Shown one piece after another: positions 18,609 through 23,673 of a stretch of DNA of 64,000 nt. Both the position numbers and the translations under genes were made by a program. The first letter of the stretch is position 1. Each line of letters starts with the position of its first letter. The notes under the pieces are model-generated. The model was not told where the DNA came from, ran no database searches, and saw only the letters and a program-made list of their open reading frames with translations. The DNA lies in sequence record MW286157.1; one strand, written 5' to 3'. The stretch comes from Escherichia phage vB_EcoM-BECP11.

Positions 18609-19637
18609 ATGTCATCAATACCTTGGATTGATAATGAGTTTGCGTATCGTGCATTAGCTCATTTACCTAAATTCACACAAGTAAATAATAGTTCAACTTT
18701 TAAATTACGGTTTAGATGCCCTGTTTGTGGAGATTCAAAAACCGATCAGAATAAAGCCCGTGGATGGTATTACGGTGATAATAATGAAGGAAATATTCAT
18801 TGTTATAACTGTAACTATCATGCACCAATCGGAATATATTTAAAGGAGTTTGAACCTGATTTATATCGTGAGTATATCTTTGAAATAAGAAAAGAAAAAG
18901 GTAAAAGTCGTCCAGTAGAAAAACCTAAAGAACTTCCTAAACATCCTGAGAAGAAAATAATTAAATCTCTTCCGTCATGTGTTAGATTAGATAAACTGGT
19001 GGAAGACCATCCAATTATAAAATATGTAAAAGCTCGTTGTATTCCAAAGGATAAATGGAAATATCTTTGGTTTACAACCGAATGGCCTAAATTAGTTAAT
19101 AGCATAGCACCGGGAACATACAAAAAGGAAATTTCTGAGCCTCGTCTTGTTATTCCAATTTATAATGCTAATGGAAAAGCCGAGTCGTTTCAAGGGCGTG
19201 CATTAAAGAAAGATGCTCCTCAAAAATATATCACCATCAAAGCTTATCCTGAGGCAACAAAAATATATGGAGTCGAACGAGTTAAAGATGGTGATGTATA
19301 TGTTTTAGAAGGACCTATAGATTCACTTTTTATTGAAAATGGTATAGCTATTACGGGTGGTCAATTAGACCTAGAAGTTGTTCCATTTAAAGATAGGCGT
19401 GTGTGGGTCTTAGATAATGAACCTCGTCATCCTGACACTATTAAGCGAATGACTAAATTAGTTGATGCAGGAGAAAGGGTTATGTTTTGGGATAAATCTC
19501 CCTGGAAATCAAAAGATGTTAATGATATGATTAGAAAGGAAGGTGCAACCCCTGAACAAATTATGGAATATATGAAAAATAATATTGCCCAGGGGTTGAT
19601 GGCTAAAATGCGGTTATCTAAATATGCTAAGATTTAA
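18609..19637 (+). CDS. 61: DNA primase gp61
   Basis: 342 aa; zinc ribbon CPVCGDS...CYNC; Toprim-like core; size equals T4 gp61. Confidence 0.9.
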   Translation: MSSIPWIDNEFAYRALAHLPKFTQVNNSSTFKLRFRCPVCGDSKTDQNKARGWYYGDNNEGNIHCYNCNYHAPIGIYLKEFEPDLYREYIFEIRKEKGKSRPVEKPKELPKHPEKKIIKSLPSCVRLDKLVEDHPIIKYVKARCIPKDKWKYLWFTTEWPKLVNSIAPGTYKKEISEPRLVIPIYNANGKAESFQGRALKKDAPQKYITIKAYPEATKIYGVERVKDGDVYVLEGPIDSLFIENGIAITGGQLDLEVVPFKDRRVWVLDNEPRHPDTIKRMTKLVDAGERVMFWDKSPWKSKDVNDMIRKEGATPEQIMEYMKNNIAQGLMAKMRLSKYAKI

Positions 19638-19834
19638 ATTAACCCAACTAAAGCAAATGCTAAATCTACAAATGTATCAAGAGTAACTACTGGAATATTA
19701 ACACCATGTGCAATTGCAATTGGTGATAAAATAAAGTTCCAGAGTAAAATTCCTACCATAGCAGAAATAGTAAAAGCTATACGTTTCTTATTACCTTTGA
19801 TGGCATTAACAAGTGCCATTAATTTTTGTACCAT
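19634..19834 (-). CDS. 66 aa predicted membrane protein, antisense to flanking early genes
   Basis: strong SD aaggagg 4 nt before ATG on minus strand; two hydrophobic segments; convergent with gene 61. Confidence 0.35.
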   Translation of the reverse strand: MVQKLMALVNAIKGNKKRIAFTISAMVGILLWNFILSPIAIAHGVNIPVVTLDTFVDLAFALVGLI

Positions 19835-19905: not shown

Positions 19906-20424
19906 ATGGCTTACTTTAACGAATGTTCACAACTGATTGAAGGCGCTGATAAAGCTCAAAATGAATATTGGGATATTCTCGGTGATGAAAAAGACCCGCT
20001 GCAAGTTATGCTTGATATGCAGAAATCTTTACAGGTTCGTTTAGCTAAAGATAAACCTGAATATAACCGTCATCCTGATGATTTGGCTACTGCAGGTGAA
20101 GTTGTTGATTGGATGCGTAATCAGAAAGATTATATTGATGATGAATTCCGCGAACTTCTGACTTCTCTTGGTGGTATGAGCAATGGTGAAAAAGATGCAT
20201 CTGCTGTATGGAAACCTTGGAAGTCGCAGCATGGTGAACGTCGTGAAACTCTGATTACTGATTTGTCTCCACAAGACCAACTGGAAATTAAATTTGAAAT
20301 GATTGATATTCTCCATTTCGTTCTGAATATGTTCCAAGGTCTTGGTCTTACAGCAGAAGAAATCTTTAAACTTTATTACCTGAAAAATGCTGAAAATTTC
20401 GCACGTCAAGACCGAGGTTATTAA
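19906..20424 (+). CDS. 56: dCTP pyrophosphatase gp56 (MazG-like)
   Basis: 172 aa from ATG 19906; EEFRELL...KLYYLKNAENFARQDRGY resembles recalled T4 gp56. Confidence 0.75.
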   Translation: MAYFNECSQLIEGADKAQNEYWDILGDEKDPLQVMLDMQKSLQVRLAKDKPEYNRHPDDLATAGEVVDWMRNQKDYIDDEFRELLTSLGGMSNGEKDASAVWKPWKSQHGERRETLITDLSPQDQLEIKFEMIDILHFVLNMFQGLGLTAEEIFKLYYLKNAENFARQDRGY

Positions 20425-20564
20425 TGTCTCGTTTAAATAAACGTCAACTCAAAAAGTTGAATAAGAAAAGGGCGAAAGCCCTTACTGCTTTATTACGTAA
20501 TGAAATAACTAAAGAAATAGACCAAGAGATTATTGAACAACTCTGGAAAGCCGCTAAATTATAA
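20424..20564 (+). CDS. 46 aa basic peptide
   Basis: ATG overlaps gene 56 stop; contains internal hairpin agggcgaaagccct; may be non-coding. Confidence 0.3.
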   Translation: MSRLNKRQLKKLNKKRAKALTALLRNEITKEIDQEIIEQLWKAAKL

Positions 20565-20566
20565 GT

Positions 20567-20574
20567 TATAAATA
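20567..20574 (+). promoter_or_regulatory. late promoter TATAAATA
   Basis: exact tataaata 32 nt upstream of soc ATG. Confidence 0.65.
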
Positions 20575-20605: not shown

Positions 20606-20842
20606 ATGGGTGGTTTCGTTAACATCAAGACCTTTACTCATCCAGCAGGTGAAGGCAAAGAAGTTAAAGGTATGGAAGTTTCTGTTCCATTTGAAATCTA
20701 TTCTAACGAGCATCGTATTGCAGATTCTCATTATCAGACCTTTCCTTCTGAAAAGGCGGCATATTCTACTGTAGTTTCTGATGCAGCTGACTGGAAAACT
20801 AAGAATGCTGCGATGTTTACACCTACAGAAATAGGTGGTTAA
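20606..20842 (+). CDS. soc: small outer capsid protein Soc
   Basis: 78 aa; motif HYQTFPSEKAAYSTV as recalled for T4 Soc. Confidence 0.75.
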   Translation: MGGFVNIKTFTHPAGEGKEVKGMEVSVPFEIYSNEHRIADSHYQTFPSEKAAYSTVVSDAADWKTKNAAMFTPTEIGG

Positions 20843-20850
20843 TAATTTAA

Positions 20851-20876
20851 GGAATCCTTCGGGGTTCCTTTTTTTC
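20851..20876 (+). terminator. rho-independent terminator ggaatcc-ttcg-gggttcc plus T7
   Basis: stem-loop then tttttttc directly after soc. Confidence 0.75.
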
Positions 20877-20885
20877 ATTTTACCG

Positions 20886-20915
20886 GTTTACATATCAAAA
20901 TGAGTATGGTATAAT
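20886..20915 (+). promoter_or_regulatory. early promoter (-35 GTTTAC, -10 TATAAT)
   Basis: gtttac 20886-20891, tataat 20910-20915. Confidence 0.6.
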
Positions 20916-20941
20916 AGAATTATCTTATAGAGGAGAGCACT

Positions 20942-21148
20942 ATGTTAAATCGTTGGATTAAACCAAATGAAGATTTAGATATTATCATTTCACGACATGT
21001 AATGAAGAAATATGAACTGCAGCCATGGTCTACAGAAGTTGTTGTGCATTCATTTATGATGTACGCAGATGGTTCTGTTGAATTTAATGCAGAGATTAGG
21101 TATGATTATGGTGAGAAGCAAGTCGAATTCAAAAGAGGCTTTTTGTAA
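20942..21148 (+). CDS. hypothetical protein, 68 aa
   Basis: ATG after SD gaggagag; first gene of an uncharacterised early block. Confidence 0.45.
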   Translation: MLNRWIKPNEDLDIIISRHVMKKYELQPWSTEVVVHSFMMYADGSVEFNAEIRYDYGEKQVEFKRGFL

Positions 21149-21486
21149 TGTTTATCTTTAATTGGTTTAAAAATTTCTTTACAGATTTTTTCTCTACAAC
21201 TCCGGGAGAAGGTGTAGTTCCTATTTCAAATGACTACCTTCCTTTAACTGTAGTTGAGTATGTTTATATGGGAGATGGAACAGTTGAAGAAGTTACTATG
21301 ACTTATGAAGAAGCCCAAGAATATTATAAAAATCCTTGGCGCTGGTCAGTACCTACATCATCTAACACACAGAATACACAGTCTAGTTCTGATTCATATG
21401 ATACTAATGTTCCTGTTCATGTATGGACGGGCGATTCATGTGGAAGTTCTTGTGATTCTAGTTGTTCATCTACATCCTGTGATTGA
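21148..21486 (+). CDS. hypothetical protein, 112 aa, hydrophobic N-terminus and Cys/Ser-rich C-terminal tail
   Basis: C-terminus [20 protein letters not shown]; ATGA-type coupling with upstream ORF. Confidence 0.5.
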
Positions 21487-21494
21487 GGAAAATT

Positions 21495-21989
21495 ATGGAA
21501 GCAATTTTGTTTGAAATGTTTATCAATAGTATTAGTACGGTGTTTGTCAAGGATGTTCCAATTACTGTAGCAGTAATGATTGACAAAAGATATGACAATA
21601 GCATGTATCTAGTAGAAGATTTTATTTCAATGCCAGTTCCAGAAGATGTTGAAATAAAACTTAAAAAGATCGGAATTATTGAAACTGTACAAAATTCTCC
21701 ATTTACGTCAATTCAAGCATTTACTAAATCTAACTATATTGATGCTGGTGAAGCATTTTATAACAATAAACCGTTGTCCTTCTATTCATATGATTCAGTA
21801 CATGACTGGAAAATAGATAAGGGAGATAAGGGAAATAAATTCATAATTGCGGAAGAAATTGCGCTATCATATTTTATTACTTCTTTATGGAATAAATTAA
21901 CTCCAAATTTGCTAAAAATTCATAAATTTGACGATGCTCCTACTATTGTTTTAGGTAAAATGAATGAAAGTCCTAAAGAAAATGCTTGA
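21495..21989 (+). CDS. hypothetical protein, 164 aa
   Basis: ATG 21495 after SD gaggaaa. Confidence 0.5.
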
Positions 21990-22167
21990 ATGGTTCAATA
22001 GACCAAACTCAATGTATATTGATGATGGTTGGGTTGAACAAGCAAATAAAGAAATGCAGAACGAGTCAGAAGAATGGATGAAATCAATGATTAGTGCTGA
22101 GAAAGAAAAGAAATTAGAACGCTCAGCGCTTAAATTGATGAGAGACATCTATGGTGATAAATCATGA
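21964..22167 (+). CDS. hypothetical protein, 67 aa
   Basis: overlaps end of upstream ORF; Lys/Glu-rich. Confidence 0.4.
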
Positions 22168-22328
22168 CCAAAGATATGACGTTAGAAGAGGCAAAGGCTA
22201 AAGCAAATGAAGCTTTGGATTTGCTTCTTAAAATTGGCAGTAAAATGATGGAAGAAAATGAAAAATACATTCAGGAAAATAAAATTCCTGACGGTCCATT
22301 AGTAGGCAAAAGGAAATCACATGATTGA
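22164..22328 (+). CDS. hypothetical protein, 54 aa
   Basis: ATG overlaps upstream stop (ATGA); helical small protein. Confidence 0.3.
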
Positions 22329-22791
22329 AGTAGCAAAACATTATTCAATAGAATTTATGTCCAAAGAAGGTAAATCAGTAAATACACTTGATAAAAAGTG
22401 CTCATTAATTATTCCTTTAGCAGAAAATCCGGATATTTTAATTAAAGATATAAAAGAAAGAAAATATCCAGAAAATGTTATTCTAATTATAAAGCATACT
22501 GAAGATATTTTGCAGAATACTGATTCACCGTTTTCTTCTTCTGAAGCTTTAACTATTAAAGGCTATAAAAGAGCTCATGAATATGGTCTTTTTGACATGT
22601 TTGAAGACGATAAAGTTAAATTAGCGAGTCAACCTTCTAAAAGTAAAACATTCATTATTGAAGATATTAAAGATATAAATGCATTTGTTAGGATGGTCTG
22701 GGCTCATTTTGATGTTGGACTACGCTGGAGAATGTCCGAAGAAGAAAGAAAGATTATTGAAGCTAATCGTCAATTTGGTTTTTATCGCTAG
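22321..22791 (+). CDS. hypothetical protein, 156 aa
   Basis: ATG 22321 with aaaagga SD. Confidence 0.5.
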
Positions 22792-22799
22792 GAATTAGT

Positions 22800-22982
22800 A
22801 TGGATTTATTTGAGATGTTAGAAGATAATCATTCTACGAATATCCAGAATGATTCTAGTGATTATAAGAAAGAGTACCGTATAGTATTACAGAATTATGG
22901 AATTGAAGCCCCAGATGCTCTTCTAGAAGAACTAGCTTCATACCATCTTGACCCTCCGCCTTGGGCTCCCTGGGCAAAATAA
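22800..22982 (+). CDS. hypothetical acidic protein, 60 aa
   Basis: ATG 22800; ends PPPWAPWAK. Confidence 0.4.
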   Translation: MDLFEMLEDNHSTNIQNDSSDYKKEYRIVLQNYGIEAPDALLEELASYHLDPPPWAPWAK

Positions 22983-22993
22983 TTCAAAAAGTT

Positions 22994-23023
22994 GTTTACT
23001 TTCCTTTCTAACGATGATATGAT
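22994..23023 (+). promoter_or_regulatory. early promoter (-35 GTTTAC, -10 TATGAT)
   Basis: gtttac 22994-22999, tatgat 23018-23023 upstream of modB. Confidence 0.55.
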
Positions 23024-23049
23024 AGCTTCTGAAGTATACGGAGGCTATC

Positions 23050-23673
23050 ATGATTATTAATCCTGCAGATGTTGAACAGTTATCTATAAAAGCTGAAAAC
23101 GTTGATTTTCAATATGATATGTATAAAAAGGTCTGTGAAAAATTTACTGACTTTGAGCAGTCTGTTCTTTGGCAATGTATGGAAGCCAAAAAGAATGAAG
23201 CTCTTCATCGGCAGTTGAATAAAATCGTTAAAAAGCATTTAACTAAATCACCTTATCAGCTATATCGTGGTATATCAAAATCGACAAAAGAACTTATTAA
23301 AGATTTACAAGTTGGAGAAGTGTTTTCAACGAACAGGGTAGATTCATTTACTACTAGTTTGCACACAGCATGTGGTTTTTCTTATGTTGAGTATTTCACT
23401 GAAATAATTTTTCGCTTAAAAACTGATAAAGCTTTTAATTATTCTGACCATATCAGCGATATTATACTTTCTTCTCCTAATACTGAGTTTAAGTACACGT
23501 ATGAAGATACTGACGGGTTAGATTCAGAGCGTACTGATAACTTAATGATGATTGTGCGTGAACAAGAATGGATGATTCCAATTGGAAAGTATAAAATAAC
23601 TTCTATTTCAAAAGAAAAATTACACGATTCATTTGGAACATTTAAAGTTTATGATATTGAGGTAGTTGAATGA
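23050..23673 (+). CDS. modB: ADP-ribosyltransferase ModB
   Basis: 207 aa; R-S-EXE-type signature (LYRG..., STS region, EQEWMIPIG); paralogue of next gene. Confidence 0.7.
   Translation: MIINPADVEQLSIKAENVDFQYDMYKKVCEKFTDFEQSVLWQCMEAKKNEALHRQLNKIVKKHLTKSPYQLYRGISKSTKELIKDLQVGEVFSTNRVDSFTTSLHTACGFSYVEYFTEIIFRLKTDKAFNYSDHISDIILSSPNTEFKYTYEDTDGLDSERTDNLMMIVREQEWMIPIGKYKITSISKEKLHDSFGTFKVYDIEVVE

Follow-up and report, generated by a model that had tools for sequence, protein, structure and literature searches.

Seven small early genes between soc and modB of a Tequatrovirus correspond to the T4 mrh.2-modA.2 genes and probably form an accessory cassette for host takeover

What are the seven small genes packed between soc and modB in Escherichia phage vB_EcoM-BECP11 (MW286157.1), and what might they do for the phage? 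The window, by which we mean the whole 64,000-nt stretch analysed here, carries on its plus strand, at 20942-22982, seven open reading frames (ORFs) of 68, 112, 164, 67, 54, 156 and 60 aa, flanked upstream by soc (20606-20842) and downstream by modB (23050-23673). Neighbouring ORFs meet in TAATG or ATGA or overlap by 8 or 26 nt, and no gap between them exceeds 8 nt. An earlier, sequence-only reading of this locus had recognised a terminator, an early promoter and a run of seven small, coupled ORFs lying between soc and modB, and in this anatomy it was correct (Table 1). It had also called the block uncharacterised, a description that does not hold for the block as a whole. The block region is 99.5% identical to that of Tequatrovirus phage JY01 and matches 771 phage records; judged by its sequence, the phage of the window belongs to Tequatrovirus. 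The seven ORFs stand in T4 order between soc and modB, and their PHROG families are those of the corresponding T4 genes. Together, the T4 annotation, the global amino acid identities gene by gene (Table 1) and the PHROG and Pfam matches make it virtually certain that they are orthologues of T4 mrh.2, mrh.1, mrh, srh, modA.4, modA.3 and modA.2. All seven are thus named T4 genes, two of which, mrh and srh, have published σ32/heat-shock phenotypes (PMC6070864), and the block is already known as a set of T4 early genes, annotated long ago and dispensable.

Table 1. Genes and expression signals of the block and its edges, in window coordinates; identity is global amino acid identity to the T4 product
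Feature	Coordinates	Strand	Product (aa)	Identity (%)	Phage records	Remarks
Intrinsic terminator after soc	20849..20877	+				hairpin GGAATCC-UUCG-GGGTTCC (20849-20870) with UUCG loop, then T-run
Predicted early sigma-70 promoter	20887..20915	+				TTTACA-17-(TG)gTATAAT; 11/12 plus extended -10; best promoter match of the region
mrh.2	20942..21148	+	68	98.5	742	phrog_1873; dN/dS at most 0.04
mrh.1	21148..21486	+	112	95.6	501	Pfam DUF7206 (PF23836)
mrh	21495..21989	+	164	85.4		Pfam PF24070 (T4_MRH); extra paralogue specific to Tequatrovirus
srh	21964..22167	+	67	100	602	'similarity to rpoH' gene; 26-nt overlap with mrh; phrog_2441
modA.4	22164..22328	+	54	96.3	587	phrog_2681; dN/dS 0.03-0.04
MotA-box-like middle-promoter candidate	22220..22246	+				TTTGCTTCT-12-TAAAAT; pattern match inside modA.4, upstream of modA.3
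modA.3	22321..22791	+	156	96.2	597	PF24070
modA.2	22800..22982	+	60	98.3	992	phrog_1647
modB's own early promoter	22995..23023	+				TTTACT-17-(TG)aTATGAT; downstream edge of the block
RNA hairpin over modB Shine-Dalgarno and AUG	23013..23058	+				5' arm overlaps the -10 of the modB promoter

With T4 (NC_000866, T4p028-T4p022) the window shares the seven genes, their order, their flanks (soc; modB, modA and srd) and the layout of terminator and promoter. It differs in its mrh allele, an uncommon one that encodes 164 aa including an inserted DKG and is matched at 99% identity or more in only 3 of 653 records, and upstream of the block, where segF and dam are lacking and soc is of the Mosigvirus/Dhakavirus type.

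The signals at the upstream edge are conserved. The soc terminator is kept, with compensatory changes in its stem, in T4, RB18, Mosigvirus, Dhakavirus, Jiaodavirus and Marfavirus, and terminator-like sites are in excess over the region (10, where 1.6 would be expected). Promoter-like sites are not enriched as a class (23 versus 20.8 in shuffles), so that the early promoter is called from its position and its conservation: its GTTTAC -35 and its -10 are kept in four genera, and terminator and promoter together can be aligned across T4, RB18, Mosigvirus and Dhakavirus. Judged by position, it is the counterpart of T4 Pe15.0, which is given as the driver of this region, for which the early promoters Pe15.0, Pe12.8 and Pe11.5 have been named (PMC6024815). 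In the T4 data of the supplement to PMC9697503 the RNAs of the block genes are classed as early, and six of the seven block proteins, detected by mass spectrometry, appear in the proteomics classification of that supplement; in the passages covered, the mrh.1 product was not seen. Host RNA polymerase would thus initiate directly downstream of the soc terminator, and the resulting single polycistronic early mRNA would yield, by closely coupled translation, seven small proteins without enzyme motifs.

At the downstream edge no terminator follows modA.2, so that read-through RNA would reach modB. The modB promoter, whose GTTTAC and -10 are kept across genera, is by its position the counterpart of Pe12.8, likewise named in PMC6024815. 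The hairpin that covers the modB start has a predicted dG of -20.8 kcal/mol (z -4.0, 0/200 shuffles), and equivalent hairpins of different sequence occur in Mosigvirus, Dhakavirus, Jiaodavirus and Marfavirus (-17.7 to -22.4 kcal/mol, z -4.7 to -7.1). These homologues were folded one by one, MAFFT having set the Dhakavirus arm out of register in the alignment; the stretch from Ursula that was folded left out the start codon and was uninformative. In read-through RNA the conserved hairpin would sequester the modB ribosome-binding site, which would make the block a translational unit apart from the ADP-ribosyltransferases. Transcripts from modB's own promoter are expected to begin downstream of the 5' arm of the hairpin, so that only promoter-proximal transcripts should be translatable. 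Read-through early transcripts of soc, e, 49 and I-TevI in T4 have their ribosome-binding sites sequestered by hairpins, and modB resembles them in having its start inside a strong hairpin; the rescuing promoter, however, is late or middle in these classic cases, whereas for modB it is another early promoter.

The fit to the hyperplastic regions of T-even genomes, which the earlier reading had proposed, is contradicted by how stable the block is within Tequatrovirus, where gene content is uniform: T4, RB18 and the window each carry the complete set of seven in collinear order, and amino acid identity to T4 (85-100%) exceeds that of the neighbours soc (45%) and gene 56 (74%). Gene content varies only between genera, Dhakavirus being without mrh and Jiaodavirus and Gelderlandvirus having smaller sets. 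Each gene occurs in about 500-990 phage records, and all were found only in Tevenvirinae (T4-like phages) of Enterobacterales; limited in this way, and dispensable, they are not conserved housekeeping genes of every T4-like phage, and on this point the earlier reading stands. The ORFs are, by their substitution patterns, real genes under purifying selection, with dN/dS of 0.00-0.22 for mrh.2, mrh.1, srh and modA.4 (for mrh.2, srh and modA.4 at most 0.04 at dS 0.14-0.51) and of 0.31-0.63 for mrh; the range for modA.3 (0.11-1.46) is poorly determined, coming from at most 12 changes.

Two of the genes, mrh and modA.3, are paralogues. Their products match PF24070 with 124.8 bits (3e-36) and 130.1 bits (7e-38), respectively, at a gathering threshold of 24.4 bits, and homologues from five further genera reach 107-156 bits. 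The family is tiny: an exhaustive profile search of 1.84 billion representatives with the Mrh family found only 13, all of them seemingly related to Mrh/ModA.3 or fragments of such proteins. The AlphaFold2 (AF2) model of Mrh (pLDDT 82) has no fold match in the PDB, and in a BFVD fold search the viral matches were family members only, which gives no clue to function. We describe here for the first time that the two genes share an orphan fold confined to T4-like phages of Enterobacterales. The ancestral copy is modA.3, which Dhakavirus retains as its Mrh-family copy and whose slot is held by single Mrh-family genes in six other genera. We place the mrh start at the ATG at 21495, with a GAGGA Shine-Dalgarno 6 nt upstream; an alternative TTG at 21483 would give 168 aa. 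The product, 85% identical to T4 Mrh, carries a 3-aa insertion, and mrh falls into three allele classes in 653 records. With nucleotide identity of 80-92% against 92-100% for the rest of the block, mrh is the most variable gene and the divergence hotspot of the block. Positive selection on mrh was considered and rejected, pairwise dN/dS being raised yet below 1. When produced recombinantly, T4 Mrh runs as a complex of megadalton size, and a 3.3 Å cryo-EM structure is mentioned in the same paper (PMC8076793); the copy of the PDB that was searched does not contain it. Mrh may thus act as a large homo-oligomer.

In T4, mrh and srh both alter late transcription, at 42 C as well as in mutants of rpoH, the σ32 gene (PMC6070864), and the σ32 genetics is that of Mosig 1998 and Frazier & Mosig 1990, as cited in PMC6070864 and PMC8076793. 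The Srh protein of the window is the same as that of T4, and its gene has a dN/dS of at most 0.02. Its pairwise likeness to residues 243-279 of E. coli σ32 is real (BLASTP E 7e-4, Smith-Waterman z 5.2, 0/2000 shuffles), but it does not extend to the family: the Srh family HMM fails to find σ32, the real RpoH ranking 211th of 2001 sequences, hhalign of the family against σ32 gives a probability of 1.7%, and the divergent members of the family bear no resemblance to σ32 (z 0-1.4). PDB sequence searches with Srh returned no sigma factor, and a search of Pfam returned neither Sigma70_r4 nor any family at E ≤0.1. The AF2 model, a soft negative in view of its pLDDT of 76 and low pTM of 0.36, consists of a helix at 2-11 and a continuous helix at 21-63, without a helix-turn-helix, and Foldseek found no match for it in the PDB. 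We accordingly reject σ32 region 4 as a feature of the Srh family; that the resemblance holds pairwise and fails at the level of profile and fold is new here, and the 'σ32 decoy' label propagated in annotation pipelines is weakly supported. The evidence for a σ32 link consists of old genetics and weak sequence similarity. In our judgement the chances that mrh and srh act on the σ32 circuit are evenly balanced; Srh would then be a long helical binder on the σ32/RNA polymerase/chaperone circuit. Among the small early proteins of T4, AsiA and Srd, the latter encoded in the same early region, bind host sigma factors or RNA polymerase. Srh is comparable to them as a small, non-essential early protein without enzymatic activity for which binding or mimicry of sigma has been proposed; it differs in its predicted structure, one long helix, and in a resemblance to σ32 that fails profile-level tests.

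Less can be said of the remaining genes. Deletions of mrh.2 are viable in T4 (PMC8262927). Mrh.1 matches PF23836 with 101.4 bits (5.5e-29, gathering threshold 25.6 bits), and the family alignment shows an aromatic N-terminus and a conserved acidic, Ser/Cys-rich C-terminal tail; a match of this tail to an FxLD lanthipeptide precursor core (14.5 bits, E 0.026, 15 residues, against an NCBIfam cut-off of 30) was dismissed as compositional. PDB profile searches with Srh, ModA.2 and Mrh.2 gave nothing better than E 0.14. Three ORFs thus match Pfam, PF24070 twice and DUF7206 once, and in none of the seven was an enzymatic or functional motif found; the absence of recognisable motifs claimed in the earlier reading is right for motifs of that kind. 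A literature search found modA.2, modA.3 and modA.4 mentioned in no main text. Many GenBank records label these three genes as the molybdate ABC transporter ModA, a confusion of gene names, and their products (54-156 aa) have no Pfam or NCBIfam match to a periplasmic-binding-protein domain.

The most widely distributed gene of the block is modA.2, which extends to Klebsiella, Enterobacter and Serratia phages. Its product has a conserved MDLFEM N-terminus and, at the extreme C-terminus, an invariant PPPW(A/S)PW motif. It always lies directly downstream of a Mrh-family gene, and in seven genera we find an order that is newly described here: a Mrh-family gene, directly followed by modA.2, then an ADP-ribosyltransferase (then Srd), with the other small ORFs variable. 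In four of the seven genera stop and start codons overlap. ModA.3 and ModA.2 may function as a pair, but since gene order is widely conserved in T4-like genomes, their adjacency is weak evidence for a partnership.

How, then, should the block as a whole be understood? It lies within the dispensable 39-56/Δ12 region of T4 (PMC6070864). T4 CRISPRi-ART scored six of its genes as 'Not Fit' and mrh.1 alone as 'Semi-Fit', and knock-down of the block genes caused no fitness defect under standard laboratory conditions (PMC11879866 supplement). Weighing identity and mechanism jointly, we lean, with somewhat better than even confidence, towards a T4 early unit that serves as a non-essential accessory cassette for host takeover, within a wider stretch of early genes (modB, modA, srd) that would be directed at the host gene-expression machinery. 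The other five proteins may likewise be stoichiometric binders of host proteins, a suggestion that we make only tentatively. That the block is simply filler, made up of frames that arose by chance or are decaying where the genome can spare them, might seem to follow from the lack of a laboratory fitness effect on knock-down or deletion. The ORFs are, however, kept in 500-990 genomes and across genera and are under strong purifying selection (for mrh.2, srh and modA.4, dN/dS does not exceed 0.04), AF2 gives Mrh a confident fold, and proteins of the block are detected during T4 infection, as classified in the supplement to PMC9697503; the evidence from selection and proteomics refutes this reading.

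The sequence-only reading had suggested host takeover or anti-defence, and of these the takeover flavour is reasonable whereas anti-defence is without supporting evidence. If some or all of the seven proteins inhibited host anti-phage systems and mattered only in hosts that carry them, one could understand why they are small, early and dispensable in laboratory strains, why they are limited to phages of one host order, and why mrh has diversified into alleles as expected of an arms-race gene. Against this, no match to any characterised family, anti-defence inhibitors included, was found in Pfam, PHROGs, NCBIfam or the PDB, which are general libraries, the main-text silence on modA.2, modA.3 and modA.4 covers any context, and mrh has a dN/dS below 1. 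Moreover, typical anti-defence islands are variable, whereas six genes of the block hardly vary among the hundreds of genomes of Tequatrovirus phages with many different hosts, and we consider an anti-defence cassette unlikely. An alternative for which we likewise see little prospect assigns ModA.2 and the Mrh-family protein, with Srh as a possible third, to the Mod ADP-ribosyltransferases as accessory factors that would act with the enzyme encoded directly downstream, for example as targeting adaptor, timer or inhibitor. It draws on the Mrh-family/ModA.2/ADP-ribosyltransferase order, which seven genera retain as the remaining small ORFs vary, on the wide spread of ModA.2, whose terminal motifs do not vary, as is typical of a docking peptide, and on the conserved hairpin that controls translation of the enzyme exactly at the modA.2-modB junction. 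Yet T4-like gene order is conserved broadly, irrespective of function, the hairpin would uncouple modB translation from the block rather than couple it, and ModA and ModB have, according to papers as cited in PMC9697503, been overexpressed, purified and catalytically characterised without block proteins. A bolder picture, which we regard as quite improbable, is that the Mrh-family protein and ModA.2 make up an unrecognised two-part device of enterobacterial T4-like phages, in which a self-assembling, very large orphan-fold particle would be joined by a small partner docking through PPPWxPW and tied functionally to the adjacent ADP-ribosyltransferase, the shell-like gene having been duplicated (as mrh) and diversifying in Tequatrovirus.

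For the host-takeover cassette that we favour, the value as a discovery is small, as its genes were placed on the T4 map decades ago and the block ranks among the more conserved parts of its neighbourhood. What it offers lies elsewhere: five of the seven proteins are still without a function, and knowledge of Mrh and Srh is that of 1990s genetics. The conserved order of Mrh-family gene, modA.2 and ADP-ribosyltransferase, the orphan fold of Mrh, the hotspot at mrh and the hairpin at modB are entry points from which these genes may be solved.

The seven-gene block (20942-22982) that the sequence-only reading had called uncharacterised is already known. The region is 99.5% identical to that of Escherichia phage JY01, with matches in 771 phage records, nearly all of them Tequatrovirus and relatives; the plus strand of the window is the minus strand in T4, and the T4 order (NC_000866) is soc, mrh.2, mrh.1, mrh, srh, modA.4, modA.3, modA.2, modB, modA, srd. 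As ORF1 to ORF7 are 98.5, 95.6, 85.4, 100, 96.3, 96.2 and 98.3% identical to the T4 proteins Mrh.2 to ModA.2, and PHROGs assigns each to the corresponding T4 gene family, all seven are named T4 genes, and comparison with T4 and RB18 leaves none of them unique. The remark that the ORFs lack recognisable motifs holds for enzyme motifs, but Pfam places ORF3 and ORF6, the paralogues mrh and modA.3, in PF24070 (T4_MRH) and ORF2 in DUF7206. In GenBank, many genomes label modA.2, modA.3 or modA.4 'molybdenum ABC transporter, periplasmic molybdenum-binding protein ModA', an annotation error propagated from the gene name.

The predicted architecture, a plus-strand block with a putative early promoter of its own after the soc terminator, was borne out in the sequence. 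Promoter-like matches are not enriched in the region (23 against 20.8 expected), so that the pattern by itself is weak proof, while terminator-like sites are (10 against 1.6); both the terminator and the promoter can be aligned across T4, RB18, Mosigvirus and Dhakavirus, with compensatory changes in the terminator stem. Three promoter matches are positional counterparts of the T4 early promoters Pe15.0, Pe12.8 and Pe11.5 named for this region (PMC6024815). A late-promoter motif 5' of soc is expected for a late gene within an early region. Inside modA.4, a MotA-box-like pattern is a candidate middle promoter from which modA.3 and modA.2 could be expressed in a second wave.

Features of the block and its surroundings (window coordinates unless a locus of a related phage is named)
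Feature	Position	Strand	Remark
66-aa hydrophobic ORF	19634-19834	-	like RB69ORF029w
46-aa basic ORF	20424-20564		82% identical to Dhakavirus ORF
Late-promoter motif	20567-20574		TATAAATA, 32 nt 5' of soc start
Terminator-like hairpin	20849-20877	+	UUCG loop and T-run, 3' of gene ending at 20842 (soc)
Identity to T4 lowered	20879-20969		82% (nucleotide)
Top promoter match in region	20887-20915	+	TTTACA-17-TGgTATAAT; counterpart of Pe15.0
ORF1-ORF7	20942-22982	+	68, 112, 164, 67, 54, 156, 60 aa
ORF1/ORF2 junction	21146-21150	+	TAATG
Mrh.1 C-terminal tail	21424-21483	+	C-x3-C-x3-C-x4-C
ORF3 ATG	21495	+	8 nt after ORF2, preceded by GAGGA
mrh identity trough	21666-21866	+	Mrh residues about 58-124
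ORF3/ORF4 overlap		+	26 nt
ORF4/ORF5 junction	22164-22167	+	ATGA
MotA-box-like pattern	22220-22246		TTTGCTTCT, 12-nt spacer, TAAAAT
ORF5/ORF6 overlap		+	8 nt
ORF6-ORF7 gap		+	8 nt
Promoter match	22995		counterpart of Pe12.8
modB hairpin	23013-23058		dG -20.8 kcal/mol, z -4.0
Promoter match	24330		counterpart of Pe11.5
Equivalent hairpin, locus L005	4825-4870		
Equivalent hairpin, locus L006	4932-4980		
Equivalent hairpin, locus L009	3718-3765		
Equivalent hairpin, locus L010	3707-3747		

The soc gene is mosaic. Its product is 91% identical to those of Mosigvirus and Dhakavirus and 45-47% to those of T4 and RB18, the genes right after it are 95-100% T4-like, and a recombination junction, where nucleotide identity to T4 falls, lies near the soc terminator. 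Two T4 genes are absent from this phage, dam (which T4 has between genes 61 and 56) and the homing endonuclease gene segF (between 56 and soc); the 66-aa and 46-aa ORFs are there instead, the former labelled 'dCTP pyrophosphatase' in some GenBank records.

A tblastn search of 50,697 phage records found mrh.2 in 742, mrh.1 in 501, mrh in 653, srh in 602, modA.4 in 587, modA.3 in 597 and modA.2 in 992, every one a T4-like phage of Enterobacterales, and when 1.84 billion protein representatives were searched exhaustively with the Mrh-family profile, only 13 matched. Within Tequatrovirus, gene content is constant and the block is better conserved than the neighbouring soc (45% amino acid identity to T4) and gene 56 (74%); at genus scale, therefore, it is not the hyperplastic region that had been supposed. 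Gene content differs from genus to genus, apart from a stable core. What follows soc is mrh.2, mrh.1, srh, modA.4, modA.3, modA.2 and one extra ORF, without mrh, in Dhakavirus; mrh.2, mrh.1, a srh-like gene, one Mrh-family gene, modA.2 and a modA.4-like gene in Mosigvirus; one ORF, srh, a Mrh-family gene and modA.2 in Gelderlandvirus; a mrh.2-like gene, one ORF, mrh.1, a Mrh-family gene and modA.2 in Marfavirus; one ORF, a Mrh-family gene and modA.2 in Jiaodavirus; and a srh-like gene, one ORF, a modA.4-like gene, a Mrh-family gene, modA.2 and one extra ORF in Citrobacter phage Ursula. In all seven lineages modA.2 lies directly 3' of a Mrh-family gene (with overlapping stop and start codons in four) and is followed by an ADP-ribosyltransferase gene and then srd, one extra ORF intervening before the enzyme gene in Mosigvirus (modA.4-like), Dhakavirus and Ursula. 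From this adjacency, modA.3 seems to be the ancestral copy, and mrh a duplicate that arose in Tequatrovirus. ModA.2 itself has a conserved MDLFEM N-terminus and an invariant PPPW(A/S)PW at its extreme C-terminus.

When the window genes were compared with T4 and RB18, dN/dS was at most 0.04 for mrh.2, srh and modA.4, although dS reached 0.14-0.51, and 0.16-0.22 for mrh.1, indicating that these four proteins are constrained. The outlier is mrh, with dN/dS of 0.31-0.63 and nucleotide identity of 80-92% against 92-100% in the other six genes; the block diverges most in the identity trough of this gene, beside a srh product 100% identical to that of T4. Database alleles fall into three classes (about 100, 85 and 74% amino acid identity), and the window allele is at least 99% identical in three records only. 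In the window allele, a DKG insertion falls in the sole low-confidence loop of the AF2 model of Mrh. This divergence fits either relaxed constraint or diversifying selection on a surface, and proves neither. The model, built from a 15-sequence family alignment (pLDDT 82, pTM 0.76), predicts an alpha+beta fold for which Foldseek, run against viral models, returned only Mrh/ModA.3-like proteins of T4-like phages (of Enterobacter, Klebsiella, Salmonella, Citrobacter, Pectobacterium, Yersinia and Erwinia); as modelled, it is an orphan fold without a functional clue. Recombinant Mrh behaves like a megadalton complex, and a 3.3 Å cryo-EM structure has been cited as data not shown (PMC8076793); a PDB search found no Mrh chain matching it. 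One 1,603-nt Logan contig encodes a 220-aa Mrh-Srh fusion (P0197), which is either an assembly error or a fusion that arose by a natural frameshift, as the two genes normally overlap in different frames. In Mrh.1, an aromatic N-terminus precedes a conserved Ser/Cys/Asp-rich tail that ends in CD or CE in those family members retaining it; its resemblance to lanthipeptide cores was weak and below threshold. The tail may bind metal or be a site of modification.

The label of 'σ32 decoy' for Srh reflects a pairwise sequence resemblance that is real but limited to a lineage. BLASTP aligns Srh 23-60 with region 4.2 of E. coli RpoH (σ32 244-279; 32% identity, E 7e-4), and the Smith-Waterman score of 58 was reached by none of 2000 shuffles (30.8 +/- 5.2), the other six block proteins scoring 22-29. 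The resemblance is kept (z 5.1-6.5) in two tested members 59-67% identical to Srh, from phages vb_EcoM-VR5 (P0243) and vB_EcoM_FB (P0216), and lost in more divergent ones (z 0-1.4). Membership of the sigma region 4 family is unsupported: true RpoH ranked only 211th among 2001 sequences with the Srh family HMM, hhalign of the family against σ32 gave 1.7% probability, PDB sequence searches matched no sigma factor, Pfam gave Srh no Sigma70_r4 match, AF2 predicts a short helix plus an unbroken one (21-63) in the place of the σ32 helix-turn-helix, and Foldseek found no match to that model. The functional link still rests on old genetics, cited in PMC6070864, in which mrh and srh have a modulating effect on late transcription that is related to σ32 and heat.

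No terminator follows modA.2. A hairpin encloses the Shine-Dalgarno sequence and AUG of modB, and its 5' arm overlaps the -10 element of the promoter that modB has for itself, so that read-through RNA from the block would leave modB untranslated whereas RNA from its own promoter would be translated. The same hairpin logic applies to read-through transcripts of T4 soc, e and 49. Equivalent hairpins of other sequence exist in Mosigvirus, Dhakavirus, Jiaodavirus and Marfavirus. The arrangement suggests that only promoter-proximal transcripts yield the ADP-ribosyltransferase.

It is shown or well supported that the block is one early polycistronic unit with coupled translation, encoding non-essential proteins under purifying selection. 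In T4 it lies within a large dispensable region (Δ12 or 39-56; PMC6070864), deletions of up to 526 bp are tolerated in mrh.2 (PMC8262927), and genome-wide CRISPRi-ART scored mrh.1 'Semi-Fit' and the other six genes 'Not Fit' (PMC11879866 supplement). Even so, purifying selection and proteomics detection in T4 refute the idea of filler ORFs: the supplementary classification in PMC9697503 lists mrh.2, mrh, srh, modA.4 and modA.3 as 'early RNA, middle protein' and modA.2 as 'early RNA, late protein', so these six proteins are made. A literature search found modA.2, modA.3 and modA.4 in no main text.

An anti-defence role would suit genes without a laboratory phenotype, but nothing positive favours it and near-invariance over hundreds of genomes would be an unusual pattern, and we consider it unlikely. 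That the products are accessory factors of the Mod enzymes is suggested only by conserved adjacency, and we consider this unlikely too. A further reading, the most novel one, a two-part assembly of a Mrh-family protein with ModA.2 tied to the ADP-ribosyltransferases, also strikes us as improbable. The earlier picture of early, small, takeover-like genes, mostly of unknown function, survives, whereas 'uncharacterised' and, within the genus, 'hyperplastic' do not. On the reading that we favour, the block products, being small, devoid of enzyme motifs and conserved at their termini, would act as stoichiometric binders of host proteins, ModA.3 and ModA.2 would work jointly, and all would form a functional group with modB, modA and srd, the takeover genes next to them.
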